Shown piece after piece: positions 1 to 61,411 of a stretch of 64,000 nt of DNA; positions within the stretch are counted from its first letter, which is position 1, and every line of letters begins with the position of its first letter. Both the position numbers and the translations under genes were made by a program. The notes below the pieces were generated by a model, which searched no databases, had not been told where the DNA came from, and was given only the letters and a program-made list of their open reading frames with translations. The stretch is from positions 7,378,001 to 7,442,000 of the forward strand of contig CM059453.1 in assembly GCA_030390025.1 (NCBI GenBank), in the 5' to 3' direction. The DNA is from Squalus acanthias (lineage: Eukaryota).

Positions 1-147
1 GATTTTGAATAGTATTTAACTGATATTTAAATTGCTAATGTGCTGGGAGGTTTTTAATCAATCAACAAGCAATTTTATGGATGCTTAAGCAATTGCAATG
101 CTTTTTGAATGGATACTTAAAGGCCGTCTAATCTTTTATTTTCTCAG

Positions 148-528
148 CCTTTTGTAGTGTTCAATGTTCTGTTGTGATGCCAAAAGTTGTGTCGGCGGTG
201 TTGGGTTCTTGTGCAGAGATCCCGTGTAAATTTGATAACATAGGCTACATCGCCAACCTGAACGGGCGGTGGATAAAGAGGAATCCTGGTCCTGGAACAC
301 ACAATGACTCCATTATCTATGATTCGAATGATCCATTCAGGCAGCATTATAATTTTAGTGGCAGAGCTGAGTTCAAGGGCAACCTTGAAAAAAGACAATG
401 CTCCCTCCTGATAAAGGATATCCGAAAGAGTGATGAGGGTGCATATCAGTTCATCACAGCCATCACCTCGGGCAGAAATTCTATAACACATCGCATTGCC
501 CGTTCCGAAGTCTTTCTTTCTGTTTTAG
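148..528 (+). CDS. Gene A V-set Ig exon
   Basis: ctcag|cct...ttag|gtgag, 381 nt, phase 1-1; GSCAEIPCKF...W...[18 protein letters not shown]. Confidence 0.9.
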
Positions 529-19512: not shown

Positions 19513-20906
19513 ACTGAGTTTAGTGGAATGAAGGTAATTGTGATTAAAATTCCAATTCTGTTAACTGTATAAGTTTTACATTTCGGCATTCCTTTGCATA
19601 TCATTAGCGGATTCCCTTCGTAAATGACTGCAAAGGAAATCTCCTTTGTCATTGGAGGACCAAGCACATGTGATCCCAGGTAGCTTCCGCACTGCCTGTG
19701 CCCTTGGATCTGTGGGCCATTACACTGCCCTCCGCCATGTGGCCCGAGACCGCAACTTTTCGCAGCCTGCCCGCCAACAGGTGATTTCGTCATTGTTTGG
19801 CGGGTCGGAAGCGCACACTGGAGGTACACCTCCAGCCTCAATTTCCAGCAAACCATTTATTTCGACGTATTTGGTTTCAGGCTTCATTTTGCATCTTGAC
19901 AGAAAAAAAATCACAGGATTTGTAAATCTGTTTTCCGCTCACTCACGACAACAGGTGAGTTTCTGATTTTTTTTGAAGATTTAATTGGCTCCAATCAGCC
20001 TCCGCCCACATAGCCCATGCACCGAGGTGAAATTGCTGGAGGGTGTAATTACAGTTTGATCAGTTCACACAGACAGGTTCCAATAGAAATTAGGGCACAG
20101 GAACTTATCATGGGAAATGTTGACTGTAATTGCATTAGACGCATTTAAAAAAAAAAATAGTATTCGATTTTCCCAGTCACTCGACGCGTGGAAGGTCAGA
20201 GAGTGCGGTCTCTATTCCGTGTCGCTGAAGACTACTCATTGCCATTTTGCTCCCTCTATTTCCTCTTTCGCTTCTGTCACTCTCTTGTTCACTCGTTCTC
20301 TGATCTCCTGTGCTTCTCACCAATTAACTTTTCCCACTTTTGTCTCGCCCCCGACTGATTCTCTATATTTCTGTAACTTTCTTATTTCCTTTCAGTTTAA
20401 TTCGTATTGCATGCTGCGATGCGGAAAGGAGTCACCAATGCTTGTATGATGGATTTGTCCTGTCAAATTCAGGGAAAATGCGGCAACGCCAGCTCCCTTC
20501 CCACCTGTTCCCCAATCATTTATGCTTCCCCAATCTCCTCAATCCAGTCCCATCGCCTACCCCGTCAAAGTCCCACTACTCCCTCACGTTTCTATAATTG
20601 CCACACGAATAGAATTACCCATTACTCTGTCAAATTCCACTTGTTCCTTTGGTAACTGTCCCTTCATTAGAATAGTTTGTCATAAGGGTAAATGTCGGAG
20701 CTCCATCTCTTCAGCTTGTTTTCCGAGTCTCCTTTCCCTCACGTTCCTTTGCTCCTTTCCTCTTTCTTCCCCTCAAAGATGCATTGTTTGTATTCAAAAT
20801 AAAACTTTTTTCTTATTCAAGGAAATTACCTTGCAATATGGATATTAACCAGACAGACAGCAAATGATAGATACATAGGTAGAGGGATAGCGGGAGAGGG
20901 AGATAC

Positions 20907-20907
<1 letters not shown>

Positions 20908-20986
<79 letters not shown>
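20908..20986 (+). repeat. (GATA)n microsatellite, ~20 units
   Basis: Perfect tagatagata run. Confidence 0.97.
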
Positions 20987-20987
<1 letters not shown>

Positions 20988-22904
20988 ATTAGTAATCCAG
21001 TTTGATATATCATCAAATATACACCGGCACAAAAGTGAAGCTGTGGATTCCGTCTTAATTTGCTTAATATTAATGGACAGTCGAATTACAACGGCCGAGC
21101 TCTTGTTAATAATCTACAACGATGTCTTTTCAATGTGCTGTTCAGAATTCGTACGCTATTCTGACACAGTGACATCTCAACACTACTTTCTACCTTGTAC
21201 CGATTCTCAGATTGCCATTTTAAGTTTTGTATGTGTTTAACATTCGTAAGTTATTATCACACAGTATTAATCTGAGGCTAGTAAATTATTAATGCACAAC
21301 TGTCACACCGTGCCATTTAAAATCAGGCCTGTATTTGTACATGGTCAAACAATATAATTTAAATACTGAAAATTTTCCATTTCTTATCATGCAAACAAAA
21401 CTCGGTTAACCAAAGAGAAGAATTACATCTGTGTCCCTTGAATTAAACTTTGAGCTCATTGATTCTCATTTTGACTATACATGAATCCCGGGACTGCTGC
21501 ATGTTGGAAATGTAGAATCGGCAAAAAACTAATGCGGATATTGTCGATTATTATTAATGTCTTAATTCAGGAAAAGACTTGCTCTACTGTGCAATAATTG
21601 CCCTTGGAGCTGTGCCTCCAGAGTACGCCTCCGACGTGTGAAATATTTATGCACCTATCTGATGGCGGCGAGGCTGCGAAAACCTGCAGTCTCAGGATGC
21701 GAGGCGGAGGGCAGTGCAATGCCCTAAAGATCCCAGGGACGCAGGCGGTGTGGAAGTTTACCAGGGCTCACGTGGGCCTGGTCCTACATTCAAAAAGTAG
21801 AATTCGATGTTATTCATTTCCGAATGGAATCTCGTGATGAGATGTAATATAATCCCGAAATCTAATTTAATTACAATTTACAGAATTGGAATTTCGATCG
21901 TAATTTGCATCATTCCAGCAACCTCACTTAAAATGTAATTTATGATAATTTTCAACATCTTTAAAACTCTAATCAGGGCCAATATTTGTGGAAACTCACT
22001 TGATACAGTGTAGGTGTATAATTTACGATGTAAAAATGTTCCAATCATGCCAGAAAAATCTTCTTACGCAGATGCAAACAGGCCCTTCACCTCTCCGCAT
22101 CCACCTTAACATTTCTGTGTGCAATTTCTGGCCAGCAATTGCTTTCTTTTGGTCTGTGCGGCTGGCCTGTCAACACGTACGCTGACAGACCGCAAGTTCC
22201 AGAAAGCGCATGCAGAAATCCTGAACTTGCGGTGGATTTCAAAGGAGGAATTGTATCGTACTCTACGCCGCCATACCGACTACAAAAACCGGTCCAATAT
22301 AGAATATTGTGGCTAAAGGGAAGTGGGAGTGCAAAGTGAGATAACGAAGTTCTACATCGCCTAACTTCAACAATTGACAACGAACTCAGTGAAATGCGAT
22401 GGGATCTCTTTTTGTTGTTAGATATAAGAGTTTGTAATGGAGAGTTTGAGCAGTGCCATGGATAGGGAATGGTACAAATATCAAAACGGGTCATCTTTAA
22501 TTCTTCCTTAAACGGACATTAATTCATGGGAGGCTGCAAAGGCATTAAACTACTTAAACGTTAAACCTGTGCAGGAGAGCTGTTGAACTGCGACTGTTGA
22601 AAGGGTAACTGAGACAAGAGATGCACCGTGTGATGTGTGCAATGACACCAGCAATGGTTCCTGAAATTTATCTCTAATTTGTATTCCCATTGAAATCGAA
22701 AAGGTTTGAAGACATACCGCATACCAGCCAAGCGTATTCGCTAATGTATCCTATCTAGTAGTTTGCATTCATTAAAAACAGAAAAAATGACAGCTAAATG
22801 TAGCTCATCGGCTGAAATCTAACGAAGAGGTTCGAATAGCTTATGTGTACATTAACACATACCCAACAATGACTTCGCGATTGGATTTTGATGTATTGTT
22901 TTGG

Positions 22905-23204
22905 GTGGTTTATATGTAGAATAACGGATACCCGGGAGTGAATTACAGGCTGGAATCTAAACAAGGGGTTCAGGGTTGTTATATATAGATTAACAGATAC
23001 CTGGGAGTGAGTTACAGGCTGTAATCTAATCGAGGAGTTCGGGGCGCGGGTAGGGGTTATATATAGAGTAACAGATAACTGGGAGTTAATTACAGGCCGG
23101 AATATAATCGAGGGGTTTCAGTGTGTTTTGTATATAGAATAACAGATAACCGGGAGTGAGTTACAGGCTGGAATCAAATCGAGCGGTTCGGGAGAGGCTT
23201 TATA
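22905..23204 (+). repeat. ~67-bp minisatellite (tatatagaataacagatacccgggagtgagttacaggctggaatctaatcgaggggttc...)
   Basis: Tandem units; the array continues at 24497-24690 and 32716-32880, split by CR1 and Penelope insertions. Confidence 0.88.
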
Positions 23205-24495
23205 TAAGAACATAAGAACATAAGAAATAGGAGCAGGAGTAGGCCAATTGGCCCCTCGAGCCTGCTCCGCCATTCAATAAGATCATGGCTGATCTGATCC
23301 TAACCGCCAATCTACTATCACAGAACCATCTCCTGAACCTAACAGAATTGGACACACGAAATAGGAGCAGGAACAGGCTACACGGCCCCTGGGCCCGCTG
23401 CGCTAGCCACAGAGCCATGGCCAATCCGAACCAACACTCATGTCCAAATTCCAGCCCGCTTCCCGTAACCCTTAATTCCCTTTACTTCTAGGAAACTGTC
23501 TTTTCATGTTTTAAATTTATGTAATGATGTAGCTTCTACAGCTTTTTGGGGCAGCATATTTCATGGACCTACCACCCTCTGAGTGAAGTAGTTCCTTCTC
23601 ATCTCAGTTTTGAAAGAGCAGCCCCTTATTCTAAGACTATGCCCCCTAGTTCTATTTTCACCCATCATCGGGAACATACTCCCCGCATCCACCCGATCCA
23701 AACCCTTCACAATCTTATATGTTTCAATAAGATCGCCTCTCATTCTTCTGAACTCCAATGAGTAGAGTCCCAATTCACCCAACCTCTCCTCATATGTCCA
23801 CCCCCTCATCCCCGGGATTAACCGAGTGAACCTTCTTTGTACTGACTCGAGAGCAAATATGTATTTTCTTAAGTAAGGACACCAAAACTGTATGCAGTAT
23901 TCCACTTGCGGTCTCACCAATACCTTGTACAACTGAAGCAATACCTCCCTATTTTTATATTCTATCCCCCTAGCAATGAAAGCCAACATTCCATTGTCCA
24001 TCTTAATCACTTGCTGCATCTGCATACTAACCTTTTGAGTTTCGTGCACCAGGACCCCCAAATACCTTTGTACTTCAGTACTTTCCAATTTCTTGCCATT
24101 AATATAATAACTTGCTCTACTATTTTTCCTGCCAAAGTTCATAACCTCACACTTTCCAGTATTGTATTCCATCTGCCAAATCTCTGCCCACTTACTTCGC
24201 CTGTCTATGTCCCCTTGCAGATTTTTTATGTCCTCCTCACTCACTACTTTCCCTCCCATCTTAGTTTCATCTGCAAACGTTGATATGTTACAGTCGGTCC
24301 CCTCCTCCAAATCGTTAATATAGATTGTAAACAGTTGGGGATCCATCAATGACCCCTGCGGAACACCACTAGTTACTGATTGCCAGTCTGAGAATGAACC
24401 ATTTATCCCAACTCTCTGCCTTCTGTTAGAAAGCCAATCCTCTGTCCATGCCAGAATTATACCCCCAATCCCGTGATTTTTTATCTTAAGCAATA
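23205..24495 (-). mobile_element. 5'-truncated CR1 inserted in the minisatellite
   Basis: 310-aa RT fragment (GVPQGS, FADE) and ttcttatg tail. Confidence 0.9.
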
Positions 24496-24785
24496 ATATA
24501 TGGAAGAACAGATAACTGGGAGTGAGTTACAGACTGAAATCTATCGAGTAGTTTCATTTTGGTTTGTATATGGAATAACAGATAGCCGGGAGTAAGTTAC
24601 AGGCTGGAATCCAATCGAGGGGTTCGGGGGAGTGTTTATATATAAAATTACCGATAGTGGGGAATGAGTTACAGACTGGAATATAATGGATAGCAAAATA
24701 CTGCGGATGCTGGAAATCTGAAATAACAACAGAAAACGCTGGAAAAACTCAGCAGGCCAGGCAGTATCCAAGGAGAGAGAAAGAG

Positions 24786-24822
24786 AGTTAACGTTTCAGG
24801 TCGATGACCTTCCGTCAGAACT
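24786..24822 (-). ncRNA. Hammerhead motif in the inverted pLTR (core variant CUGACGG)
   Basis: Reverse complement reads agttctgacggaaggtcatcgacctgaaacgttaact; one core substitution. Confidence 0.6.
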
Positions 24823-26209
24823 GTGAAGAGCCGGAAATCAAATAGATTTAAGGCCAGAGTAAAGCTGGGAAAAGGGGGAGGGGATAAAAGAACAAAGGGG
24901 GGGTGGGTGAAGAGACATTAAGAGACATTAAGAGATATGCAAGACTAGAGGCGGTGTTAATGTGACAGATTAAGGCTGAAAGAAGTGTGAAATCCACGGG
25001 CAGAATGAAGGACAGCTGCCAGCTTCTAGGAGGAAAAAAAAGGTAGGGGGGGTGCAAATAAAAGGGTGGAAAAAATAAAATATAAATGTGATTGGAGCTG
25101 AGGTTATGATCTAAAATTGTTGAACTCGATATTGAGTCCAGAGGGCTGTAGCGTGCCTAAACGAAAGATGAGGTGCTGTTCCTCGAGCTTACGCTGCGCT
25201 TCTGTGGAACAGTGTAATAGGCCGAGGACGGTGAGGTCAGAGTGGGAGTGAAGCGGTGAATTAAAGTGACAGGCCACCGGGAGCTCGGGGTCCCCCTTAC
25301 GGACTGAACGGAGGTGTTCCGCAAAGCGGTCACCCAATCTGCGTTTGGTCTCCTCACCTTTCACCCCACCAGCCTCCACATTCAACGGATCATCCTCCGC
25401 CATTTCCGCCACCTCCAGCGTGATCCCACCTTTCAGCATTCCGCAAGGACCGCTCCCTCCGCGACACCCTAGTCCACTCCTCTACCACCCCCAGCACCCC
25501 TTCCCCTTCGCCCGGCACCTTCCCGTGCACGCGCAGGAGATGCAACACATGCCCTTATACCTCCCCTCTTCCCACTGTCCAGGGCCCCAAACACCCCTTC
25601 CAGGTGAAACAGCGATTTACTTGTACTTCCTGCAATTTAGTATACTGTATTTGCTGCTCACGATGTGGTCTCCTCTACATTGGGGAGACCAAACGCAGAT
25701 TGGGTGACCGCTTTGCAGAACACCTCCGTTCAGTCCGTAAGGGGGACCCCGAGCTCCCGGTGGCCTGTCACTTTAATTCACCGCTTCACTCCCACTCTGA
25801 CCTCACCGTCCTCGGCCTATTACACTGTTCCACGGTAGTGCAGCGTAAGCTCGAGGAACAGCACCTCATCTTTCGTTTAGGCACGCTACAGCCCTCTGGA
25901 CTCAATATCGAGTTCAACAATTTTAGATCATAACCTCAGCTCCAATCACATTTATATTTTATTTTTTCCACCCTTTTATTTGCCCCCCCCACCTTTTTTT
26001 TCCTCCTAGAAGCTGGCAGCTATCCTTCATTCTGCCAGTGGATTTCACACTTCTTTCAGCCTTAATCTGTCACATTAACACCACCTCTAGCCTTGCATAT
26101 CTCTTAATGTCTCTTAATGTCTCTTCACTCCCCCCTTTGTTCTTTTATCCCCTCCCCCTTTTCCCAGCTTTACTCTGGCCTTAAATCTATTTGATTTCCG
26201 GCTCTTCAC

Positions 26210-26246
26210 AGTTCTGACGAAAGGTCATCGACCTGAAACGTTAACT
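26210..26246 (+). ncRNA. Minimal type I hammerhead ribozyme in Penelope pLTR
   Basis: AGUU-CUGACGA-A-AGGUC(AUC)GACCU-GAAAC-GUU^AACU: stem I AGUU/AACU, 5-bp stem II, palindromic loop-less helix III (AACGUU). Confidence 0.8.
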
Positions 26247-26264
26247 CTCTTTCTCTCTCCACGG

Positions 26265-29133
26265 ATGCTGCCTGGCCTGCTGAGTTTTTCCAGCGTTTTC
26301 TGTTGTTATTTCAGATTTCCAGCATCCGCAGTATTTTGCTATCGTATTAGTGTTTGGTTCACTGCCACCTCTCTTCTAGGAATGCCTACCTTGAAGAAGT
26401 TCTGCTCTTCTCTTCGACGGGATTTCCGTTTGGCTCTTCAACCTTGTTCATCTTCATTGATTTCAGTTTCCCTTCTCGTGTTTGATGAGGTATCTTCCAA
26501 GACTCGGTTTCACAGCCACATTACTTTCCTCAGCAACTGTCTCCGGTTCCGACTTATCCCACGTGGATTCCAACTAAACTTCCACCCTTCGGGTTTCGGA
26601 TCAACCAAGGATTACAAATATCTCCAAGATATTCATCGTTCCTCGAACTACTGCTCTCGCCGCCTCTTGAGATCCACGCTCAACTCCATGCGGCGCCACA
26701 TGAACACTCTCGACCTCTCTCTTCAGCAGCACCGACGCACTCTATCTCAAAGCTGTCCGGGTCCACAGTTCCATTTCATCCTTAGACTCATCCGACGCTT
26801 CAACAAAAAACTTTTCTTCTTCCTTTCCGATGTCAAGGATCGCAAGCTTCAACAACTCTCGGACACTAACGCCCCTCCAGAACCTTCTTCCCCTTCACTT
26901 TCCTCTGACCCCCCTTCTCCCAATCTCACCCGCTGCCGCGTTTTCACTATCCCCTCTGGCCTTCCCCTCTCTGACTCCGAACGATCAGTCCTCAGCAAAG
27001 GCCTGACCTTCATCCCCTTACGCCCCCATCTCAATGAATTTCGAGCTCGGCACGATGCTGAGCTCTTTTTCCGCCGCCTCCGTCTCCGTGCTCACTTCTC
27101 TGGCCAGGAGTCTTCCCCCCGCACGGCTGACCCTTTCTCCCGCTTTCAGAATTCTCGTTCCACCTGGACCCCTCCCTCTGGCCTCTTACCCTCTCTAGAT
27201 CTTTTCATTGCTAACTGCCGCCGTGACATCGGCCAGCTCAATTTCTCTGCTCCCCTCACTCACTCCAACCTACCTCCCTCTGAACTTGCAGCTCTCCATT
27301 CTCTCCGATCCAACCCTGACATTGTCATTAAACCTGCTGACAAGGGTGGCGCTGTTGTTGTTTGGCGAACCGACCTCTACCTAGCGGAAGTTGAACGCCA
27401 ACTCTCTGACACCTCCTCCTACCTCCACCTGGACCATGACCCCACTACTGAACATCAAGCCACCGTGTCCAAGACCGTCACTGACCTCATCTCCTCTGGA
27501 GATCTTCCCCCCACGGCTGCCAACCTCATAGTTCCCCAACCGCGCACAGCCCGCTTCTACCTCCTTCCCAAGATCCACAAACAGGACTGCCCCGGTAGAC
27601 CCATCGTTTCAGCCTGTTCTTGCCCCACGGAACTTATCTCTTCCTATCTCGACTCTATTTTTTCTCCCCTTGTCCAGTCTCTTCCCACCTACATCCGCGA
27701 CTCTTCCGATGCCCTCCGCCATTTTAACAGTTTCCAGTTTCCCGGCCCCAACCGTCTCCTCTTCACTATGGACGTACAATCCCTCTACACCTCCATTCCC
27801 CACCAGGATGGCCAGAGGGCGCTCCGCTTCTTCCTTGAACAGAGGCCCAACCAGTCCCCATCCACCACCACCCTCCTCCGCCTGGCTGAACTTGTTCTCA
27901 CATTGAACAACTTCTCCTTTGACTCTACCCATTTCCTCCAAATTAAAGGTGTTGCTATGGGTACCCGCATGGGTCCTAGCTATGCCTGCCTTTTCGTGGG
28001 ATATGTGGAACACTCTTTGTTCCAGTCCTACTCGGGTCCCCTCCCTCACCTCTTTTTCCGGTACATTGATGACTGTATCGGTGCCGTCTCCTGCTCTCGC
28101 CCTGAACTAGAACATTTCATTCACTATGCTTCCAATTTCCACCCTTCCCTCACCTTCACATGGTCCATCTCCGACTCTTCCCTTCCCTTCCTCGACTTCT
28201 CCATCTCCATCTCTGGGGATAGGTTATTGACTAACATTCACTACAAGCCCACTGACTCCCACAGCTACCTGGACTACACTTCCTCCCACCCCGCCTCCTG
28301 TAAGGACTCTATTCCATTCTCCCAGTTTCTCCGTCTCCGCCGCATCTGCTCTGATGATGCCACCTTCCATACCAGTGCTTCCGACATGTCTTCCTTTTTC
28401 CTCAACCGAGGATTCCCCTCTACCGTGGTCGACACGGCCCTCGACCGTGTCCGTTCTATCTCCCGCACTTCTGCCCTCACCCCTGCCCCTCCCTCCCGGA
28501 ACCACGATAGGGTTCCCCTTGTCCTCACCTTTCACCCCACCAGCCTCCACATTCAACGGATCATCCTCCGCCATTTCCGCCACCTCCAGCGTGATCCCAC
28601 CACCAAACACATCTTCCCCTCACCTCCCCTTTCAGCATTCCGCAGGGACCGCTCCCTCCGCGACACCCTAGTCCACTCCTCTACCACCCCCAGCACCCCT
28701 TCCCCTTCGCCCAGGCACCTTCCCGTGCACGCGCAGGAGATGCAACACATGCCCTTACACCTCCCCTCTTCCCACTGTCCAGGGCCCCAAACACCCCTTC
28801 CAGGTGAAACAGCGATTTACTTGTACTTCCTGCAATTTAGTATACTGTATTCGCTGCTCACGATGTGGTCTCCTCTACATTGGGGAGACCAAACGCAGAT
28901 TGGGTGACCGCTTTGCGGAACACCTCCGTTCAGTCCGTAAGGGGGACCCCGAGCTCCCGGTGGCCTGTCACTTTAATTCACCGCTTCACTCCCACTCTGA
29001 CCTCACCGTCCTCGGCCTATTACACTGTTCCACGGAAGCGCAGCGTAAGCTCGAGGAACAGCACCTCATCTTTCGTTTAGGCACGCTACAGCCCTCTGGA
29101 CTCAATATCGAGTTCAACAATTTTAGATCATAA
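26265..29133 (+). pseudogene. Penelope-like ORF copy with a +1 frameshift
   Basis: Nearly identical to 29467-32334, but an extra A at 28713 (cccaggc vs cccggc) separates the RT (26265-28907) from the GIY-YIG (28804-29133). Confidence 0.88.
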
Positions 29134-29411
29134 CCTCAGCTCCAATCACATTTATATTTTATTTTTTCCACCCTTTTATTTGCCCCCCCCCCACCTTTTT
29201 TTTCCTCCTAGAAGCTGGCAGCTGTCCTTCATTCTGCCAGTGGATTTCACACTTCTTTCAGCCTTAATCTGTCACATTAACACCACCTCTAGCCTTGCAT
29301 ATCTCTTAATGTCTCTTAATGTCTCTTCATCTCCCCCTTTGTTCTTTTATCCCCTCCCCCTTTTCCCAGCTTTACTCTGGCCTTAAATCTATTTGATTTC
29401 CGGCTCTTCAC

Positions 29412-29448
29412 AGTTCTGACGAAAGGTCATCGACCTGAAACGTTAACT
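29412..29448 (+). ncRNA. Minimal type I hammerhead ribozyme (copy 2)
   Basis: Identical to 26210-26246, 3202 nt downstream. Confidence 0.8.
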
Positions 29449-29466
29449 CTCTTTCTCTCTCCACGG

Positions 29467-32334
29467 ATGCTGCCTGGCCTGCTGAGTTTTTCCAGCGTTT
29501 TCTGTTGTTATTTCAGATTTCCAGCATCCGCAGTATTTTGCTATCGTATTAGTGTTTGGTTCACTGCCACCTCTCTTCTAGGAATGCCTACCTTGAAGAA
29601 GTTCTGCTCTTCTCTTCGACGGGATTTCCGTTTGGCTCTTCAACCTTGTTCATCTTCATTGATTTCAGTTTCCCTTCTCGTGTTTGATGAGGTATCTTCC
29701 AAGACTCGGTTTCACAGCCACATTACTTTCCTCAGCAACTGTCTCCGGTTCCGACTTATCCCACGTGGATTCCAACTAAACTTCCACCCTTCGTGTTTCG
29801 GATCAACCAAGGATTACAAATATCTCCAAGATATTCATCGTTCCTCGAACTACTGCTCTCGCCGCCTCTTGAGATCCACGCTCAACTCCATGCGGCGCCA
29901 CATGAACACTCTCGACCTCTCTCTTCAGCAGCACCGACGCACTCTATCTCAAAGCTGTCCGGGTCCACAGTTCCATTTCATCCTTAGACTCATCCGACGC
30001 TTCAACAAAAAACTTTTCTTCTTCCTTTCCGATGTCAAGGATCGCAAGCTTCAACAACTCTCGGACACTAACGCCCCTCCAGAACCTTCTTCCCCTTCAC
30101 TTTCCTCTGACCCCCCTTCTCCCAATCTCACCCCCTGCCGCGTTTTCACTATCCCCTCTGGCCTTCCCCTCTCTGACTCCGAACGATCAGTCCTCAGCAA
30201 AGGCCTGACCTTCATCCCCTTACGCCCCCATCTCAATGAATTTCGAGCTCGGCACGATGCTGAGCTCTTTTTCCGCCGCCTCCGTCTCCGTGCTCACTTC
30301 TCTGGCCAGGAGTCTTCCCCCCGCACGGCTGACCCTTTCTCCCGCTTTCAGAATTCTCGTTCCACCTGGACCCCTCCCTCTGGCCTCTTACCCTCTCTAG
30401 ATCTTTTCATTGCTAACTGCCGCCGTGACATCGGCCAGCTCAATTTCTCTGCTCCCCTCACTCACTCCAACCTACCTCCCTCTGAACTTGCAGCTCTCCA
30501 TTCTCTCCGATCCAACCCTGACATTGTCATTAAACCTGCTGACAAGGGTGGCGCTGTTGTTGTTTGGCGAACCGACCTCTACCTAGCGGAAGTTGAACGC
30601 CAACTCTCTGACACCTCCTCCTACCTCCACCTGGACCATGACCCCACTACTGAACATCAAGCCACCGTGTCCAAGACCGTCACTGACCTCATCTCCTCTG
30701 GAGATCTTCCCCCCACGGCTGCCAACCTCATAGTTCCCCAACCGCGCACAGCCCGCTTCTACCTCCTTCCCAAGATCCACAAACAGGACTGCCCCGGTAG
30801 ACCCATCGTTTCAGCCTGTTCTTGCCCCACGGAACTTATCTCTTCCTATCTCGACTCTATTTTTTCTCCCCTTGTCCAGTCTCTTCCCACCTACATCCGC
30901 GACTCTTCCGATGCCCTCCGCCATTTTAACAGTTTCCAGTTTCCCGGCCCCAACCGTCTCCTCTTCACTATGGACGTACAATCCCTCTACACCTCCATTC
31001 CCCACCAGGATGGCCTGAGGGCGCTCCGCTTCTTCCTTGAACAGAGGCCCAACCAGTCCCCATCCACCACCACCCTCCTCCGCCTGGCTGAACTTGTTCT
31101 CACATTGAACAACTTCTCCTTTGAGTCTACCCATTTCCTCCAAATTAAAGGTGTTGCTATGGGTACCCGCATGGGTCCTAGCTATGCCTGCCTTTTCGTG
31201 GGATATGTGGAACACTCTTTGTTCCAGTCCTACTCGGGTCCCCTCCATCACCTCTTTTTCCGGTACATTGATGACTGTATCGGTGCCGTCTCCTGCTCTC
31301 GCCCTGAACTAGAACATTTCATTCACTATGCTTCCAATTTCCACCCTTCCCTCACCTTCACATGGTCCATCTCCGACTCTTCCCTTCCCTTCCTCGACTT
31401 CTCCATCTCCATCTCTGGGGATAGGTTATTGACTAACATTCACTACAAGCCCACTGACTCCCACAGCTACCTGGACTACACTTCCTCCCACCCCGCCTCC
31501 TGTAAGGACTCTATTCCATTCTCCCAGTTTCTCCGTCTCCGCCGCATCTGCTCTGATGATGCCACCTTCCATACCAGTGCTTCCGACATGTCTTCCTTTT
31601 TCCTCAACCGAGGATTCCCCTCTACCGTGGTCGACACGGCCCTCGACCGTGTCCGTTCTATCTCCCGCACTTCTGCCCTCACCCCTGCCCCTCCCTCCCG
31701 GAACCACGATAGGGTTCCCCTTGTCCTCACCTTTCACCCCACCAGCCTCCACATTCAACGGATCATCCTCCGCCATTTCCGCCACCTCCAGCGTGATCCC
31801 ACCACCAAACACTTCTTCCCCTCACCTCCCCTTTCAGCATTCCGCAGGGACCGCTCCCTCCGCGACACCCTAGTCCACTCCTCTACCACCCCCAGCACCC
31901 CTTCCCCTTCGCCCGGCACCTTCCCGTGCACGCGCAGGAGATGCAACACATGCCCTTACACCTCCCCTCTTCCCACTGTCCAGGGCCCCAAACACCCCTT
32001 CCAGGTGAAACAGCGATTTACTTGTACTTCCTGCAATTTAGTATACTGTATTCGCTGCTCACGATGTGGTCTCCTCTACATTGGGGAGACCAATCGCAGA
32101 TTGGGTGACCGCTTTGCGGAACACCTCCGTTCAGTCCGTAAGGGGGACCCCGAGCTCCCGGTGGCCTGTCACTTTAATTCACCGCTTCACTCCCACTCTG
32201 ACCTCACCGTCCTCGGCCTATTACACTGTTCCACGGAAGCGCAGCGTAAGCTCGAGGAACAGCACCTCATCTTTCGTTTAGGCACGCTACAGCCCTCTGG
32301 ACACAATATCGAGTTCAACAATTTTAGATCATAA
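29467..32334 (+). CDS. Penelope-like RT + GIY-YIG endonuclease polyprotein (intact, 955 aa)
   Basis: IKPADKGG, PKIHK...GRPIVS, MDVQSLYTSIP, GVAMG, RYIDD; Cys-rich linker CTRRRCNTC; VY...CSRC...YIGET...RFAEH. Confidence 0.92.
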   Translation: MLPGLLSFSSVFCCYFRFPASAVFCYRISVWFTATSLLGMPTLKKFCSSLRRDFRLALQPCSSSLISVSLLVFDEVSSKTRFHSHITFLSNCLRFRLIPRGFQLNFHPSCFGSTKDYKYLQDIHRSSNYCSRRLLRSTLNSMRRHMNTLDLSLQQHRRTLSQSCPGPQFHFILRLIRRFNKKLFFFLSDVKDRKLQQLSDTNAPPEPSSPSLSSDPPSPNLTPCRVFTIPSGLPLSDSERSVLSKGLTFIPLRPHLNEFRARHDAELFFRRLRLRAHFSGQESSPRTADPFSRFQNSRSTWTPPSGLLPSLDLFIANCRRDIGQLNFSAPLTHSNLPPSELAALHSLRSNPDIVIKPADKGGAVVVWRTDLYLAEVERQLSDTSSYLHLDHDPTTEHQATVSKTVTDLISSGDLPPTAANLIVPQPRTARFYLLPKIHKQDCPGRPIVSACSCPTELISSYLDSIFSPLVQSLPTYIRDSSDALRHFNSFQFPGPNRLLFTMDVQSLYTSIPHQDGLRALRFFLEQRPNQSPSTTTLLRLAELVLTLNNFSFESTHFLQIKGVAMGTRMGPSYACLFVGYVEHSLFQSYSGPLHHLFFRYIDDCIGAVSCSRPELEHFIHYASNFHPSLTFTWSISDSSLPFLDFSISISGDRLLTNIHYKPTDSHSYLDYTSSHPASCKDSIPFSQFLRLRRICSDDATFHTSASDMSSFFLNRGFPSTVVDTALDRVRSISRTSALTPAPPSRNHDRVPLVLTFHPTSLHIQRIILRHFRHLQRDPTTKHFFPSPPLSAFRRDRSLRDTLVHSSTTPSTPSPSPGTFPCTRRRCNTCPYTSPLPTVQGPKHPFQVKQRFTCTSCNLVYCIRCSRCGLLYIGETNRRLGDRFAEHLRSVRKGDPELPVACHFNSPLHSHSDLTVLGLLHCSTEAQRKLEEQHLIFRLGTLQPSGHNIEFNNFRS

Positions 32335-32613
32335 CCTCAGCTCCAATCACATTTATATTTTATTTTTTCCACCCTTTTATTTGCCCCCCCCCCCACCTTT
32401 TTTTTCCTCCTAGAAGCTGGCAGCTGTCCTTCATTCTGCCAGTGGATTTCACACTTCTTTCAGCCTTAATCTGTCACATTAACACCACCTCTATCCTTGC
32501 ATATCTCTTAATGTCTCTTAATGTCTCTTCACCCCCCCCTTTGTTCTTTTATCCTCTCCCCCTTTTCCCAGCTTTCCTCTGGCCTTAAATCTATTTGATT
32601 TCCGGCTCTTCAC

Positions 32614-32650
32614 AGTTCTGACGAAAGGTCATCGACCTGAAACGTTAACT
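32614..32650 (+). ncRNA. Minimal type I hammerhead ribozyme (copy 3)
   Basis: Identical motif, a further 3202 nt downstream. Confidence 0.8.
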
Positions 32651-33354
32651 CTCTTTCTCTCTCCACGGATGCTGCCTGGCCTGCTGAGTTTTTCCAGCGT
32701 TTTCTGTTGTTATTTTGGAATATAATGGAGGTGCTTTGGTGGTGTATATACAGAATAACAGAAACCCGGGAGGGAGTTACAGAGTGGAATCTAATCGAGG
32801 AGTCGGGGTGTATACATAGAATAACGGGTACTCGGTGCGTCAGTTACAGGCTGGAATCAAATCGAGGGGTTCGGGTTAATTATGTCCTAATTGCCTCGCT
32901 GGATTATATCAGAGCTAACAAATGCGTTCTGAGGGTGAAGACTGCTCCAGGTTTAAGCTGGTCACATGCTTCAATCGCAGGTCTGTGCAAGGTTGGCAGC
33001 TGCCACACTATTAATGGCATCGACGCTAAATGGAATGAAACAGCCAGTGATCCAATTCCTGATCACTTTCGAGTGTACCCTTCCCACCTGGTCACCGGGC
33101 CCGCATCTTGGCTGCGTAAGCCCAGGGTCAGGCACAACTGTGAGCACGGAGCCCATTGGCAGCCAGAGCGTTTGAGTTAATAATGTTACCATGTGTTCTT
33201 TGTTTATCTGTACCACGTTTTCTTATTGGATCGGTACCACGTGTTCTTGGTGTATCTGTACCACGTTTACATTGTCTACCTGTAACCCGTTTTATTTCTG
33301 TATCTCTACCAAGTGTCCTCTTTTATATGCAGCACGTGTTGTTTCTGTTGCAAA

Positions 33355-33390
33355 GAGACGAGCGAATATGCAGCTATTAAATTTACATGA
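33355..33390 (+). pseudogene. Orphan relic or short exon encoding [11 protein letters not shown], homologous to the receptor tail
   Basis: gagacgagcgaatatgcagctattaaa matches the gene B tail (gagaccagcgaatatgcagcaattaaa) at 25/27 nt. Confidence 0.5.
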
Positions 33391-33925
33391 AAAGGACCAG
33401 AACATGGAGAGGACGTTTCTCTGAATCTCAAAATTTCAGTTTCATTGTCTAAACGAAAAAATTATAACAACGAAGAGATACGACAATTTTTTACAATCAA
33501 GACATTGGAAACGCTCGTTGTTCTTGCTTGCAGTTTTTGCCCCAATATTCTCCACTTCCAACTTGAACGCTTGCTGGAGTTCGATTTCTCTAATCTCTCG
33601 CTTAAACTGTTTTTTTGCAGATCCCTCCCTTCACTACGAGGTTTGTCCCGAGGCCCAATACCCCGGAGTCTGCTCCTGTCCTCACAGGATATCGAAAAGG
33701 CTACTTGCCGCACGGTTCACTGAACAGCGATAAATACTATGGAAGAAATCCCCCTCTCTAACGCGGGGCTCCGAGACCATTTGGATTCCCTCAGCCAAGA
33801 ATGATCAATGAGAGACGTGATTACTTTCGGAACTGCTTTGCTCAACTGCATCGGTTAAAGCCATTTAGAGCAATTGTGCGATGCAACGCACTGCCACCCC
33901 GCCGGATAACCTAAAGCTGATTCTA

Positions 33926-34690
33926 TGGCCCAGAATTTTGACTCGGAGGCTTGCCGCGGGGTGAAGTATCGCGCGCGATCTTACCTACCCCGCCAGCCGT
34001 TGTGTTTCGGGCTCACACGAACTTCGGCTCCTGGGACTCTCCCTGGTGCCGGCGCGCAGTGTGTGCGTGTCGCAGAGGCGCATTTAGTTCGATGCGACCT
34101 CTGGGATCACGTGGGACATGGAGCGCCAATGGCAGCACACCATCTTTCATTCATAGTTTTGACAGGAGAACTGTCAAAACTATGAATACAAATTGCCCCC
34201 AATAGAACAGCAAAACCTCAAATATTTTTTTTCAAAAAACAACACATTAATAAAATAAATATAGTTAAATAAATTTAGCACTTTAAACAAAAATTTAAAA
34301 TTTTGATTTTTTTTTAATTCTTTTTAAAAGTTAGAAAAATAAACTTACCTTTCTTTAAAGTCTCTAAAAAAGATAAACCTGTTGAAAAAAATAATAATAC
34401 TTGATTAACTACTTACCTTGTTAAAAGAGGGTCTTCCGCCTCCTTTCTTCATGTGTAAAATCTTCCATGCTTGCCTTCGCGTTGAAACCAGAAAAAAAAC
34501 CTAAGTGTGCTGCGTGCGCACAGTCTGTAGTGCGCACGCGGTTCACGTAGGAAACCGCCCCCGCTGCGCCATACCGGAAGTGCGGGTTTCCCGCGCATGC
34601 GCAGTGCATGCATGAAACCGGCACTTCGGGACCTAATACGCGAGAGTACACAGTTCGTACTCTCCCGTTTTCAGCCGAATTTTTGGGCCA
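33926..34690. mobile_element. MITE-like element
   Basis: TIRs tggcccagaattt / aatttttgggcca; same GC-arm/AT-core layout. Confidence 0.65.
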
Positions 34691-35107
34691 TTACCTAAGG
34701 AGGAAGCATCCGCGGACGAAGGAATGGGTAGGAACGGGGAACCGTGCACTCTGGTCTCCATAATGCTACATTTCCGAGTGTCCATCTGATAGATACAGTT
34801 CAAGGGAGATCTGACGAACACTTCACAGCCTCCTCATCAGATTAGACATATTAAACACGCAATACACTGTTGGAAAGTTTGGACCAATCGGTGCAGCGCA
34901 GCCCATGTTGCCGCCTGTGAACACAAAAAAAATTCAAGCTACTGCCTTTGTGTTGACTATTGCCTGTTATTGAATCACTCTGAGCTGCTTCCAGCCATAT
35001 TATGCAATGTATTAATAGACTATTAAACAGGAGAGCCAACTGGGTTATTAAAGCGCTTTCACTGTCAGGATGATTAGTAAAAAATTTTTGGGCAATTTGC
35101 AGGCCCA

Positions 35108-35495
35108 CATAGTGGTTGTGTTACTGGAGTAGTAAACCAGAGGCCTGGACTAATGATCCGGAGACATGAGTTGAAATCCACCACGGCAGCTGGGGGAATT
35201 TAAATTCAGTTAATTAAATAAATCTGGAATAGAAAGCTAGTATCAGTAATGCTGACCATGAAACTACCAGATTGTCGGAAAAACCCAACTCGTTCACTAT
35301 TATCCTTTAGGGAAGGAAATCTGCCGTCCTTACCCGGTCTGGCCTACATGTAACTCCCGAAGCAGAGCAATGTCGTTAACTCTTAACTGCACTCTTAAAT
35401 GGCCGAGCAAGCCAGTCAGTTAACGGCAATTAGGGTAGGCAATAAATGCTGGCTTTGGAAGCGACGCCCACATCCCGTGAAAGAATAAACAAAAA
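35108..35495 (+). mobile_element. tRNA-derived SINE with LINE-derived 3' tail
   Basis: A/B-box-like head (tagtggtt...gagttgaaatcc); tail ggcaataaatgctggc...gcgacgcccacatccc shared with the LINE at 16099-16699. Confidence 0.7.
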
Positions 35496-36589
35496 TATTG
35501 CACCTGTTCAAGAAGGCGGCTCAGCAACCCCCTCTCAAGTGAAGCTAGAGGAGGGCAGTAAATGGTGGCTTAGCCAGCGTAGCTCACACCTGAGAGCTAT
35601 TTGAAAAAGGCCCCTGCATTTTCCCCAGGTCTAATTTTCGAATGTTTACCCATTCTGAACAACTTGATTCTTCTTGAAATATGATTCCCGCCGGTAGCTC
35701 TCAAATGATCAGACCTAAGCTTTCAATCTTCAAAGCGAGTGGCGGCTGGATTTTTAACAGGAGCGGTAGCCCTGACTGAACTTGAAGTGCTGAGCCCAGT
35801 TGAGCTAGAGAGCGGACAGACTTATTGCTGAATTGGTCCTTGGTTTTTCAGACGGTTGGACAGTCAAAAATCGCAATTTAAATTGCAGTTTGTTGTAATT
35901 TCTCTGATTCCTCCTGGAAGCCGAGCTCTTGCTTGTGCCATGATCTGTTTGGATGAAGGGTTCGCAATCCAACAGCGCCACAGAATGTCAGGCAGACAGC
36001 ATTACATAGGCGATCTGTCACTGCATCATCAGACACATCTGAGTCCAACAGGGGCTTAAATCCTGCATCTTGCGCAGACAAACTGCTAGTTTACCTCACC
36101 CTCCCCAACATAGACTGTTTAAGTATGTACAGGTGCGTTGACCGATGCAGATGTGGTTGGAGAATGTGCTCTGCTTGAAGAGATGAACTTGCTTCCTTTG
36201 TCCATTAGATGGCGTGCGCCGTGATCTGGTCGCTTTGCGCACATCCTTTCGATGGAAGGAAAAGCGACAAAGGACATTTGAACCACTTTGCAGAGAAAGC
36301 ACAGGAAGCTTCATTTAGCTGAGTGGAATCTGAACCGGAAAACGTAGTGACGCTTGCAAAGGTCCTGTTGGAATGCCTGTTCGTATTAGCCACACATCCT
36401 GTGTGTATTAGGTTGAATTATATTTAAGGGTGGCGATTTACCAAGGTGACTCTTTGCTTCACTTCATGCTTATTATCTGGTTGCCGTTTGAACAGAGTCA
36501 TTTTATGGCAATCAGCGTGCTTTGTTAATTTAACTGGGAATTTGGAATGTGTTACACTGTGCCGGCAAATAAGTTAATGTAAAAAAAAA

Positions 36590-37145
36590 TACAAAATCAA
36601 ATAATTGCGGATCCTGGAAATCTGAAAAAAACCCAGAAAACACTGGAAATACTCAGCAGCTCAGGCAGCATCCGTGGAGAGAGAAACAGAGTTAACGTTT
36701 AAGATCGGTGAATTTTCATGAGAACTGGAAGAGATTAGAGATGTAACAAGTTTTAAGCAAGTGCAGAGGCAGGGAAAGGGGGAGGGGAGGAAACAACAAG
36801 AGGGAAGTTCTGTGATAGGGTGGAAGGCAGTACAGATTAAATGACAAAAACGATGATGGTGCGAGGTGAAAGTTTGGTATTGGACAAGTAAATAAACAAA
36901 AGATGGATTTGGAGGAGATGTAAATGAGAATAGCAGAATCATCATCATCAGCTTCCGTCCGAAAAAATGCGGGCAGAGATTATGAACTGAAATTGTGGAA
37001 CTCAATGTTAAGTCCCGAAGGTTGTAAAGTGCCTAATCGAAAGATGAGGTACTGTTCCTCGAGCTTCCATTGAGCGTCATTGGAACAATGTAGGATACGG
37101 AGGAAAGAGCGGTCAGAGTGGGAATGGGGAGCTGAATTAAAGTGT
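36590..37145 (-). mobile_element. Older degenerate Penelope 3' end/pLTR
   Basis: Similar to 24691-25270 (ctggaaatctgaaa...ctcagcag...gagttaacgttt; GIY-YIG C-terminal remnant tcgaaagatgaggtactgttcctcgagc); hammerhead core decayed. Confidence 0.75.
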
Positions 37146-37644
37146 GTTTCTTACTTCACAAACCGGTAGGGAATGCAATGAGAGTAATGCAAGGAACAAG
37201 AGTTCAAATCCAAACATGGCACTTTGAGCATGTGAATGCAGGTTTTACAAATCTGCACGTAAAAAATCTGGAACCTCAGAGAGTGACATTGTAGCTGTCG
37301 AATGCCAGTCAGTCGAATCAAATTATGTGCGGCCATGGATGAGAATGAAATACATCCTTTGCCATCGTACGTCTAGGTAGCGTGTCGAAAAATATTCTAA
37401 TCATGAAGCTCAAGTTGAATTATTCGCAGAAACACCTCTTTATAATTCCTTCCTTTCAGAAGGATACCGATGGAATCAAAATAAATAGAAAGTTTAGCTG
37501 CTGTAGTGAAGGGAACTGGTGGAAGTTGACAGGAACATGCAGGTTTATTACACTGGGCTGGGAGAGTGTGCAAATCTAACGCCACAACTGACATAGAGAG
37601 TCAACGGTATCCGGCAGGGCTATTTAACAACATAATAGGGAGGG

Positions 37645-38400
37645 GACCCCTCCAGAGACTTGAGCACAAAAATCTAGGCTGACAGTCCAGTGCAGTACTG
37701 AGGGAGCGCTGCACTGTCGGAGGGGCAGTACTGAGGGACCGCTACACTGTCGGAGGGGCAGTACTGAGGGAGCGCCGCACTGTCGGAGGGGCAGCACTGA
37801 GGGAGTGCCGCTATGTCGGAGGGGCAGTACTGAGGAAGCGCAGCACTATTGGAGGGACACTAACGGGGGAGCGCTGCACTGTGGGATGGGCAATACTGAG
37901 GGAGCGTGGCATTGTCGGAGCACTGTACTGATGGAGCGCTACACTATTGGAAGGGCATTACTGAGGGGGTGCTGCATTGTCGCAGGTCCAATACTGAGGG
38001 AGCGCCGCGCTGTCCGAGGAGCAGTACTGAGGGAGCGCAGCACTGTCGGAGGGGCAGTACTGAGGGAGTGCTGCACTGTCGGAGCTGCCGTCTTTCAGAT
38101 GAGACGTTAAAGCAAGGCCCTGTCTTCCCTACAGGTGAACGTAAAAGATGCCATTGCCACTAATCCGAAGAAGAGCAGAGAATTTTCCCCGGTGTTATTG
38201 AACAATATTTATCCCTCAATCAACATAACAAAAACAGATGATCGGGTCATTATCAAATTGCTGTTTTTGGGAGCTTGCTGTGCACAAATTGGCTGCCACG
38301 TTTCCTACATTACGGCAGCGACCACACTTCAAATGTACTTCATTGGCTGTAAATCACATTGGGACGTCCTAAAAGGCGCTATAGAAATGCAAGTGTTTCT
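37645..38400 (+). mobile_element. Deu-domain SINE (SacSINE1/AmnSINE1-like) with internal tandem expansion
   Basis: gccgtctttcagatgagacgttaaa...aaagatgccattg Deu-like core; 3' ggcgctatagaaatgcaag; more decayed relatives at ~14860-15180, ~41250-41480, ~56910-57230. Confidence 0.75.
37692..38085 (+). repeat. 34-bp minisatellite (gcagtactgagggagcgctgcactgtcggagggg), ~11-12 units
   Basis: Direct tandem units visible inside the SINE. Confidence 0.88.
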
Positions 38401-38728
38401 GTTCTTTTTGTTCCGAAATGAAATCAAAGTTCGAACTGGGAAATTATTTTTTTATTATTAAAGCAGATAAAAAAGTTTAAAACTACATTGGTAATTCATG
38501 CCACCTTCCTGCACAGTTTCGGTAGTATGTTTGGAGTGCAGAATCTTTGGGATTGTAAATCAAATCGTCTCACAAAGAGATTTTAAACCGTTAGCTATTA
38601 CTCTCGGAAAGATATCCATTATCACAGCACTTCCTGGAGTGCGAATTTGTGTTCGAACTCATAATCAACAATTGTGTGAAGATATTGACCTGTTCCATCT
38701 GTCAGAATAGGGTGAATGCCGCTGATTT

Positions 38729-61030: not shown

Positions 61031-61411
61031 AACTGAATGTTAACAGGCGTTATACTATCAGCGCGGATGATCTTGAAACTGACAATACTTTAAAGCACCT
61101 GATGACGGAAAATAAATCAAACATTGATTTGCAACAAGTACTATGAGAATTGTGGTCTTTCAGAAAATCGGTCCCATGTTTTGATTTACGTTCCCAAAGT
61201 CGAGTTCATTGGCATAGAGTTGACAGTGTGACTTTTTCAATAATGTATCTTATCAAATTTTTTATCTATTCTTTGAAAATAACAATTTTACAAAACATGT
61301 CTAACATCGTCTCTGTCTGTTAATCTATTGAAATCCATTGGCCGCAGTGTGAACCCACACAACCGGGGACCGGTTTGCCAAAAAAGCTTGCAATGAAACA
61401 CCAGAGACAAT

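Follow-up and report, generated by a model that had tools for sequence, protein, structure and literature searches.

The tandem array analysed here is a single insertion of about 8 kb (24690-32715) bounded by a 13-bp target-site duplication, located in a window of 64,000 nucleotides from the shark Squalus acanthias (contig CM059453.1, positions 7,378,001 to 7,442,000). It is best explained, with a probability of about 0.72, as one insertion of an EN+ Neptune-type Penelope-like element (PLE), templated by an RNA that ran through the hammerhead sites of the element. The layout of the array, its target-site duplication, both of its ends and the inversion junction can be read directly in the sequence, and from them we infer the priming and templating steps.

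Anatomy of the insertion and its target site

The components of the array are collected in Table 1. A partial tandem with pseudo-LTRs, an inverted 5'-truncated arm and a one-sided tail difference are all present, the insertion ending +69 and +100 nt downstream of the predicted hammerhead cut, that is, with a difference of 31 nt. The long direct arm extends for 7365 nt across three hammerhead sites, and the opposite arm, of 664 nt, across one. The latter contains the 3' half of the endonuclease, the 3' UTR, a hammerhead copy and a 100-nt tail, and its first ATG reads ATA. No palindrome is found at the inversion junction, and the starts of the two arms lie about 360 nt apart within the unit. The inverted fourth hammerhead and the target-site duplication had been overlooked in the initial annotation.

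Table 1. Coordinates of the features of the insertion in the window
Feature	Position	Strand	Basis
Left target-site duplication, 13 bp, TGGAATATAATGG	24677..24689	+	same 13-mer at 32716-32728
Inverted 5'-truncated arm, 664 nt	24690..25353	-	blastn 97% to unit; alignment, lengths
Fourth hammerhead copy, core A9 to G (24812)	24786..24822	-	alignment; within inverted arm
Inversion junction, 3-nt microhomology TCC common to both arms	25351..25353	.	junction comparison
5'-truncated direct copy (upstream pseudo-LTR), 28-nt internal deletion	25351..26242	+	blastn, alignment
Minimal type I hammerhead 1, predicted cut after 26242	26210..26246	+	sequence, descriptor
Full unit 1, 3202 nt	26243..29444	+	blastn
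Minimal type I hammerhead 2, predicted cut after 29444	29412..29448	+	sequence, descriptor
Full unit 2, 3202 nt	29445..32646	+	blastn
Open RT + CX4CX2C linker + GIY-YIG ORF, 916 aa	29584..32334	+	Pfam, homologues, motif positions
Minimal type I hammerhead 3, predicted cut after 32646	32614..32650	+	sequence, descriptor
Element tail, 69 nt past last predicted cut; insertion right end	32647..32715	+	alignment
Right target-site duplication	32716..32728	+	copy of left 13-mer

The 13-mer of the duplication occurs only twice in the window, both strands having been searched, and its length becomes 14 bp if the next, ambiguous A is counted. The empty site, when rejoined, corresponds to one unit of a local repeat of about 70 bp, and the target of this one insertion is an AT-rich site within that repeat, not a microsatellite. 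The partial tandem, the inverted 5'-truncated arm and the one-sided tail are shared with the Neptune clade as portrayed in PMC8557442, from which the present insertion differs in carrying two full units and in its target, the microsatellite bias of Neptune being a tendency and not a rule.

Structure, folding and conservation of the hammerheads

As the initial annotation had it, three identical minimal type I hammerhead cores are spaced exactly 3202 nt apart (C3 at 26214, 29416 and 32618), and the predicted cuts follow from the placement of core and helices. In hammerhead 2, helix I is formed by AGUU and AACU (29412-15/29445-48, 4 bp), the core CUGACGA (29416-22) is followed by one extra A, and helix II (5 bp, 29424-36) is followed by GAAA and C-G, with U16.1 at 29443 and U17 at 29444. 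The conserved core CUGANGA / GAAA / UH with helices I and II is thus present in the hammerheads, together with the extra nucleotide between 9 and 10.1 and the palindromic 15.2-16.2. In the simplest register, the pair at these positions is A10.1-U11.1, not G10.1-C11.1, and is read as a variant inside the family.

The minimal hammerhead (min-HHR) descriptor matched the window three times, whereas 100 shuffles averaged 0.01 matches (maximum 1); as copies of one motif, the three are counted as one observation. A loose hammerhead-like match at 59702 (minus strand) was lost under a stricter descriptor. The Rfam search that the initial annotation had advised returned seven matches between 20000 and 40000 at E<=10, with no hammerhead among them, which is not counted against the motifs since minimal PLE hammerheads are devoid of the helix III that the models expect.

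These motifs were compared with the min-HHR described in metazoan PLE pseudo-LTRs (PMC4209133), with which they share the type I core, the lack of a helix III loop, the palindromic 15.2-16.2, the extra nucleotide after A9, the 4-bp helix I, and an arrangement in which copies spaced by about 3 kb flank an RT ORF, with opposite-strand copies nearby. They differ in the host, here a cartilaginous fish, in the A10.1-U11.1 pair instead of the usual G-C, which was highly conserved in the 2014 set while lying outside its descriptor, and in the 5-bp helix II. Among fish elements, min-HHR are on record for Neptune, Poseidon and Xena (PMC4209133), and two supplements of that work hold no shark, Callorhinchus or Leucoraja match. 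The initial annotation was right to see a Penelope-like element whose minimal hammerheads are of the type described as acting through dimers. They belong to an already described PLE kind and are ordinary as a discovery of kind.

Judged by sequence, these are true minimal type I hammerheads and are conserved, with a helix III that would be formable only as dimers. Helix III is loop-less, as had been noted, but the canonical dimer helix is the 4-nt ACGU, the proposed palindrome AACGUU including A14 and U17. In the predicted fold, pair probabilities are 0.96-0.99 for helix II and 0.2-0.66 for helix I. In the best predicted fold of the monomer, core and cleavage site pair with each other (UGACG/CGUUA); the double hammerhead reaches -10.9 kcal/mol versus -18.4 for two self-folded monomers when nearest-neighbour energies only are considered. 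In this model, folding favours inactive states, the active dimer lying 7.5 kcal/mol above two monomers.

The motif was found in 13 of 80 related loci, with 13 sense matches and 1 antisense match against 0.1 in 20 shuffles. The palindromic 15.1-16.1, which is no part of the descriptor, is present in 13 of these 14 motifs; G-C occupies 10.1-11.1 in 13/14 and A-U in 1/14, and C is found at position 17 in 9/14, where the shark locus has U17. The motif sits in the pseudo-LTR, between the end of EN and the start of the ORF, and its place is the same in relatives. Elements sharing it are only 31-53% identical in protein, and its retention across such distances implies that it does something that selection keeps, which counts against regarding cleavage as a side step. 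Hammerhead cleavage may be more efficient in vivo than in vitro.

The encoded protein and the divergence of the copies

An intact ORF of 955 aa had been proposed, with its first ATG 22 nt past the cut. Such a frame is indeed open in unit 2 from the upstream in-frame ATG at 29467, and the distance is right. The conserved start, however, is the second ATG, at 29584, 139 nt past the predicted cut, which opens 916 aa: of the near-full-length homologues, 38/45 have a residue at M40 and only 1/45 at residue 10. The unit 1 ORF starts at 26382 and is frameshifted by a 1-nt insertion at 28713, leading to a stop at 28907 (841 aa); it also carries L517Q at a conserved leucine.

The ORF of unit 2 contains DKG (30538-52; ADKGG at aa 358, upstream of the RT core), RYIDD (31261-75; aa 599), the linker (31927-53; CTRRRCNTC at aa 821-829, between RT and EN) and the GIY-YIG core (32041-85). 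Pfam locates RVT_1 at aa 478-605 (E=5e-6) and GIY-YIG at aa 857-893 (E=6e-4), both below the curated cut-off, and the ORF has 218 homologues, of which those listed carry RT-type domains. The CCHH motif, with two cysteines between GIY and YIG, and the catalytic residues R, H, E and N are found (VYCIRCSRCGLLYIG); C825, C828, R843, H847, H863, E892 and N908, counted from M40, are at least 90% conserved (n=30 sequences). A sequence search of solved structures with the ORF gave 0 matches at E<=1. An RT followed by a C-terminal GIY-YIG, DKG, a CX2-5CxxC linker and the CCHH motif are features of the Neptune clade in PMC8557442. The element would thus be a Neptune-type EN+ PLE in a cartilaginous fish, the clade being judged by motif, with a linker that Neptune shares with Nematis (PMC8557442).

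The open frame of unit 2 bears P594H, where 43/45 homologues have P, and L946H, where 44/45 have L, I or M, and its alleles at 31125, 31247, 31813 and 32094 differ from the common letter in sequencing runs. With a single open frame, itself bearing private changes at conserved positions, the locus is more likely, as far as sequence can tell, a decaying product than a source. The substitutions between the two ORFs are all non-synonymous (8/8; P about 0.10-0.17 under neutrality).

These changes bear on the proposal of the initial annotation that the locus is a near-intact, potentially active source, in which paired tandem hammerheads release the ORF-complete RNA 29445-32646, to be translated and/or circularised. 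In its favour, three identical intact cores recur once per unit and two predicted cuts enclose the whole ORF, the double-hammerhead fold is feasible in its topology, relatives conserve the motif and its place, and the model has already been published as a proposal (PMC4209133; PMC6765202). Nevertheless, such activity appears improbable: besides the two substitutions and the four uncommon alleles, the predicted fold disfavours the active dimer, the locus departs from most relatives at 10.1-11.1 and 17, published activity is low even for dimers (PMC4209133), and a linear monomer cannot template insertions ending at +69/+100. Nor is the tandem needed to supply a partner ribozyme, as had been suggested, since the two pseudo-LTRs of any PLE already carry two hammerheads and a third is superfluous.

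The four arms differ by private changes only, with 0 shared splits in 628 columns. Units 1 and 2 show 13 substitutions in about 3200 nt, none of CpG type, and the truncated and inverted arms show 8 differences in about 960 columns and 10 in about 630, respectively, 6 of these 18 being CpG-type. That the two units differ less than the other arms, and without CpG-type changes, would be expected if the second unit had arisen by later unequal crossing-over between direct repeats, or by an assembly duplication. This origin is nonetheless rather unlikely, as in the 628 columns the two full units never share an allele that sets them apart from both other arms, and the excess in the inverted arm is only marginal (P=0.056); even so, the RT would still have crossed at least 2 hammerhead sites on the direct arm, and the read-through conclusion would stand. 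Transversions make up 10/13 of the differences between units, an excess that is not significant against a host duplication in the window (P=0.27). Since none of the 13 differences is of CpG type, RT or assembly errors may account for some of them, and the open unit may be closer to intact than its sequence suggests. An age of about 2.9 million generations, calculated from the 13 differences with the epaulette-shark rate of 7e-10 (PMC10587355), was dropped, and no age is given because the lack of CpG-type changes makes the clock unreliable.

Template, priming and the role of the hammerheads

Both ends of the insertion lie downstream of the cut, which implies that the RT crossed hammerhead sites; the template was uncleaved or re-ligated, and a cleaved linear monomer could not have produced ends at +69 and +100. 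The view that release of a unit-length RNA is the key step finds no support here. Under the favoured explanation, the RT/GIY-YIG protein would nick the two target strands 13 nt apart, and cDNA synthesis would start at internal tail sites, 69 and 100 nt past the predicted cut. The RT would then copy the long arm, with its three hammerhead sites, and the short opposite arm, with one, and both would be joined at the 3-nt microhomology. As template, the simplest candidate would be an uncleaved multimeric transcript of a tandem source. Cleavage by the hammerheads would probably be slow or dependent on protein, and would be a side or regulatory step instead of an obligatory release of the template.

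This mechanism is supported by PAc, the Poseidon element of Anolis carolinensis, which in vitro nicks and extends both strands, as is supposed here for two-strand priming, and whose RT starts at two internal sites, downstream of the hammerhead, that coincide with genomic tail ends (PMC11167929). In that system, hammerhead cleavage needed protein and was dispensable for insertion, no RNA-seq ends fell at the cut site, and unprocessed RNA was the dominant substrate in vitro. Minimal PLE hammerheads showed low activity even in dimers and trimers in published tests (PMC4209133). PAc belongs to a different clade, its hammerhead overlaps the start codon and its RT starts inside the ORF, whereas here the cut precedes the conserved ATG by 139 nt and both ends lie in the leader. 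The 31-nt difference between ends matches the optional 30-40-nt tail known in PLEs (PMC8557442 and PMC3846280), which supports the favoured explanation.

Twenty-four sequencing runs contain the stretch or part of it, all as contigs and 0 on record as RNA. In four runs, among the 24 of 916 rows listed, loose contig ends gather at 29511-29520 (29513 in 34 contigs, 29514 in 19) and 29542-29553 (29542 in 45 and 39 contigs), the same two zones as the ends of the insertion itself. Related elements also diverge from each other downstream of the cut, at +54/55 (three copies in L010/L016) and at +43 (L003/L005). No GT..AG splice joint was seen among the joints listed (15 of 50) in run contigs. Contig depth in three runs is about a thousand-fold higher over 29421-29527 than over the 5' part of the ORF, a figure that measures neither copy number nor expression.

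For the inverted arm, the two-primer model is inferred, and the same junction could arise by fold-back priming, in which the long cDNA self-primes at TCC and the arm ends where a nuclease has cut the tail. The junction sequence agrees with this just as well, and self-priming and endonuclease resolution are published suggestions (PMC3846280 and PMC8557442). This route is a tenable minority possibility: the junction has no palindrome, the arm starts lie far apart in the unit, no allele is shared by the inverted arm and the adjacent truncated copy, and the end of the inverted arm falls in the family-wide end zone, which in the anole corresponds to an RT start (PMC11167929).

Regarding the template, the anatomy suits a re-ligated circle no less than an uncleaved multimer. 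A hammerhead in each pseudo-LTR, with about 3 kb between the two, their cleavage as dimers and the formation of circles were proposed in 2014 by Cervera and De la Pena (PMC4209133). Applied to this locus, cutting by two hammerheads and ligation would give a 3202-nt circle, on which RT primed at +69 would roll for 2.3 rounds; the exact 3202-nt period, the star-like copies without shared derived changes, the reading through of every hammerhead site and the conservation of the motif all agree with it, and circles have been shown for small retrozymes with canonical hammerheads (PMC7229834). The uncleaved transcript of a homogeneous tandem, however, predicts the same anatomy; for the anole element, unprocessed RNA was the main substrate in vitro and RNA-seq showed no reads ending at the cut (PMC11167929), and Naiad PLEs build such tandems although they carry no hammerheads (PMC8557442), so that the circle is a doubtful template here. 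The fuller version of this reading, a fossil of rolling-circle reverse transcription in which dimeric hammerheads yield the circle and a dimeric RT-endonuclease primes both nicked target strands at +69 and +100, with 2.3 rounds on one side, is likewise unlikely. Non-LTR retrozymes (PMC7229834 and bioRxiv 10.64898/2026.07.22.740005) also have tandem units with a type I hammerhead in each, but are short and non-coding, with canonical hammerheads and demonstrated circles; the present unit, by contrast, is 3202 nt long and coding, with a minimal motif.

The role of the hammerhead in PLEs has been called unclear (PMC8557442). The locus alone does not decide the matter, yet it preserves a clean natural record, a duplication-bounded insertion with both ends past the cut, which narrows the template to an uncleaved multimer or a circle and, by anatomy only, would extend internal initiation on unprocessed RNA from the anole Poseidon to a Neptune-type element. 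Divergent RT-PCR alone cannot separate a circle from an uncleaved tandem transcript, because their junction sequence is identical. The unit-specific alleles permit a circle test beyond the reach of ordinary divergent PCR, since no linear transcript of this array could link the 3' alleles of unit 2 (32494, 32555 and 32576), across the cut and past +69, to its own 5' allele at +350 (29794), as a circle would. If true, a circular intermediate of 3.2 kb that codes for protein, in an autonomous vertebrate retrotransposon, would bear out what was proposed in 2014.

Anatomy of the insertion and its surroundings

When one unit was aligned to the window, the array proved longer than in the initial annotation, comprising further partial copies at its left side. 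An identical 13-mer occurs at 24677-24689 and 32716-32728 and is absent elsewhere in the window, and the two flanks, once joined, form one unit of a local repeat of ~70 bp; therefore, 24690-32715 (8026 bp) is a single insertion flanked by a target-site duplication. At the junction, its inverted arm and its direct arm (7365 nt) have the letters TCC in common. Units 1 and 2 differ by 13 substitutions and two one-base gaps, and the four arms are star-like (0 shared splits in 628 columns), as expected for one source sequence. The arrangement seen here, with a partial tandem, an inverted truncated arm, a one-sided tail of ~31 nt and a short duplication, is the one described for Penelope insertions (PMC8557442, PMC3846280).

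The insertion lies between two paralogous CD22-like immunoglobulin-domain exon blocks of the same strand (132-9833, 47728-52878), and Pfam gave no match in the plus-strand frames between them (49 of the 62 frames of at least 85 aa). The wider host duplication, pieces of other repeats and a minisatellite are listed in the table.

Features of the array, of its middle hammerhead and of the surroundings
Feature	Position	Strand	Details
5'-truncated direct copy	from 25351	+	blastn
Full unit 1	26243-29444	+	blastn
Full unit 2	29445-32646	+	blastn
Element sequence past last cut		+	blastn, 69 nt
Inverted arm	left side of array	-	blastn, 664 nt
Middle hammerhead, helix I	29412-29415		AGUU, pairing with AACU after the cut
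Middle hammerhead, core and helix II			CUGACGA, one extra A, 5-bp helix II with 3-nt loop
Middle hammerhead, 3' side	predicted cut after 29444		GAAA, CG, UU; AACU next
Host duplication	132-20146 / 47620-63993		spacing 42-47 kb, about 73-88% identity; CD22/Siglec-like V-set, C2-set and I-set exons (plus strand)
Pieces of other RT-encoding repeats	3927-6923, 16299-16778, 23561-24526, 58438-60406		Pfam RVT_1 at 23561-24523; presumably CR1-like LINEs
Minisatellite	37629-38150		33-bp period

Hammerhead motifs and their predicted folding

The three hammerheads first reported, exactly 3202 nt apart, are indeed present, with cores from 26214, 29416 and 32618. A descriptor requiring the core plus both helices matched three times in the window, these being copies of one motif, versus a mean of 0.01 across 100 shuffles; a fourth copy, with A9 replaced by G, lies inside the inverted arm. 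An Rfam search of 20000-40000 gave seven weak matches, none of them a hammerhead. The same descriptor was applied to the best 80 of 522 related loci, which are metagenome contigs, many of them short and without flanks; 13 of the loci yielded 14 motifs, of which 13 are sense and 1 is antisense, versus 0.1 in 20 shuffles. They are placed either downstream of the endonuclease end or upstream of the ORF start, and their helix sequences vary with pairing kept. Taking into account this conserved placement and pairing, the window motif is, on comparative grounds, a true member of the hammerhead family carried by Penelope-like elements (PLEs). Helix positions 15.1 to 16.1 are palindromic in 13/14 of the relatives' motifs, G10.1-C11.1 occurs in 13/14, and position 17 is C in nine, U in four and A in one. 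The less usual choices of the window motif are A10.1-U11.1 and U17, which may lower cleavage rates.

The predicted monomer fold is an inactive state in which the core pairs with the cleavage site (-9.2 kcal/mol), and by predicted energy, which leaves out tertiary contacts, the double hammerhead (-10.9) is less stable than two monomers (-18.4) or an inactive duplex (-23.1). Cleavage would thus probably need help. A C at position 7 lets the monomer pair UGACG (29417-29421) with CGUUA (29441-29445), burying the palindrome and the cut; this could be an off-state, specific to this copy because relatives vary at position 7. Three related hammerheads (L058:2660, L060:2216, L070:2013) show a U3-A8 core covariation, also reported in PMC4209133.

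At 29405-29413, and in the copies, a pyrimidine run is followed by a helix I 5' strand reading CAG, resembling a 3' splice site, and more AG sites occur within the tail (29508-29535). The intron end of D. virilis Penelope maps to helix I (PMC4209133); no spliced joint was found here among the 15 of 50 joints listed for contigs of sequencing runs. The module 29411-29545, made up of hammerhead and tail, is by itself common to many contigs, with differing sequence before 29411 (43 and 32 contigs, two runs), and seems to be common to several families or to short non-autonomous copies.

Protein and state of the two units

Starting at the ATG at 29467, unit 2 has an uninterrupted frame of 955 aa, with Pfam RT and GIY-YIG matches, each under the curated cut-offs. 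DKG, YIDD, a CX4CX2C linker, a CCHH motif and R/H/E/N residues are present, a set that would fit Neptune, or Nematis. Among the best 120 of 218 homologues, the nearest named ones are from Chiloscyllium punctatum (bamboo shark; 70% and 66% identity), in support of a cartilaginous fish as host, and 45 of these 120 are near-full-length. Among those, the position of the second methionine (aa 40, nt 29584) is occupied in 38/45 and residue 10 in 1/45, and the top matches start with MPTL, as does a second-methionine start; therefore, the protein is likely to be of 916 aa, starting 139 nt past the cut. The first ATG is also missing from the inverted arm. Thus, an intact 955-aa ORF opening 22 nt after the cut, as originally claimed, stands as an open frame, its first ATG not being the likely start.

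The description as near-intact is not supported, as neither unit is pristine: unit 1 is frameshifted by one extra nucleotide at 28713 and also has L517Q (L in 43/45 homologues), and unit 2 carries P594H (P in 43/45) and, beside a conserved asparagine, L946H (L, I or M in 44/45). All eight ORF substitutions between the units change an amino acid (neutral P about 0.10-0.17), and at 31125, 31247, 31813 and 32094 contigs of four runs carry the other letter almost throughout. Since CpG-type changes account for 0/13 unit differences versus 6/18 in the shorter arms, RT or assembly errors may contribute, beside plain decay.

Insertion ends and the nature of the template

Both ends of the insertion lie downstream of the cut, by 69 nt in the direct arm and by 100 nt in the inverted arm. 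When the hammerhead cuts an RNA, the upstream piece stops at U17, without the bases to +69 or +100, and priming at +69 on a released monomer would give only 69 nt of cDNA; therefore, the insertion template ran through the hammerhead sites. As for the unit-length RNA whose release had been proposed, this anatomy rules out its linear form as template, the circular form staying compatible. The simplest template is a multimeric RNA left uncut, and a ligated circle fits equally. From the observed anatomy and ends we infer the priming, the number of primers and the template: target strands would be nicked with a 13-nt stagger, RT would be primed at two tail sites, and a long and a short cDNA would be joined at TCC.

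Contig loose ends cluster within 29511-29520 (about +69) and 29542-29553 (about +98 to +109), among 24 of 916 rows listed, from runs not recorded as RNA, and related families diverge at +54/55 in three copies and at +43 in two. Ends past the cut are, from these alignments, a family-wide property. A distant relative (L010:1060-3663, 52% identity) has an inverted and a direct arm, each of which stops about 54 nt downstream of the cut, and a scripted search of it gave no target-site duplication. In the window, 36581-36727 and 36973-37144 (minus strand) belong to an older 5'-truncated relative (78-85% identity, different 3' UTR) whose hammerhead (C3 at 36722) is decayed, with altered core letters, and whose tail likewise reaches about 106 nt past the cut.

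According to PMC11167929, an anole PLE nicks both strands and extends them, and its RT starts at two internal sites that are the genomic tail ends, matching the insertion ends past the cut found here; its hammerhead cleavage requires protein, insertion does not require cleavage, and RNA-seq ends at the cut are absent. Cervera and De la Pena (PMC4209133) describe a minimal hammerhead in each pseudo-LTR, the two separated by about 3 kb, with opposite-strand neighbours, fish examples being Neptune, Poseidon and Xena; monomers were inactive, dimers and trimers had low activity, and circles were proposed as templates of more-than-unit copies. A review (PMC6765202) restates the tandem-dimer argument and gives uncleaved oligomers as insertion templates, PMC8557442 reports the same tandems in Naiad elements without hammerheads, and a 2026 preprint (bioRxiv 10.64898/2026.07.22.740005), with one chondrichthyan sampled, links tandem retrozymes to PLE pseudo-LTRs. 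Neither a shark PLE hammerhead nor a full-length PLE circle was found in the literature searched, most subscription papers lying outside the search. The release model is the proposal of 2014 (PMC4209133), and the locus, which is genuine and well formed, is of an ordinary kind and belongs to a described family.
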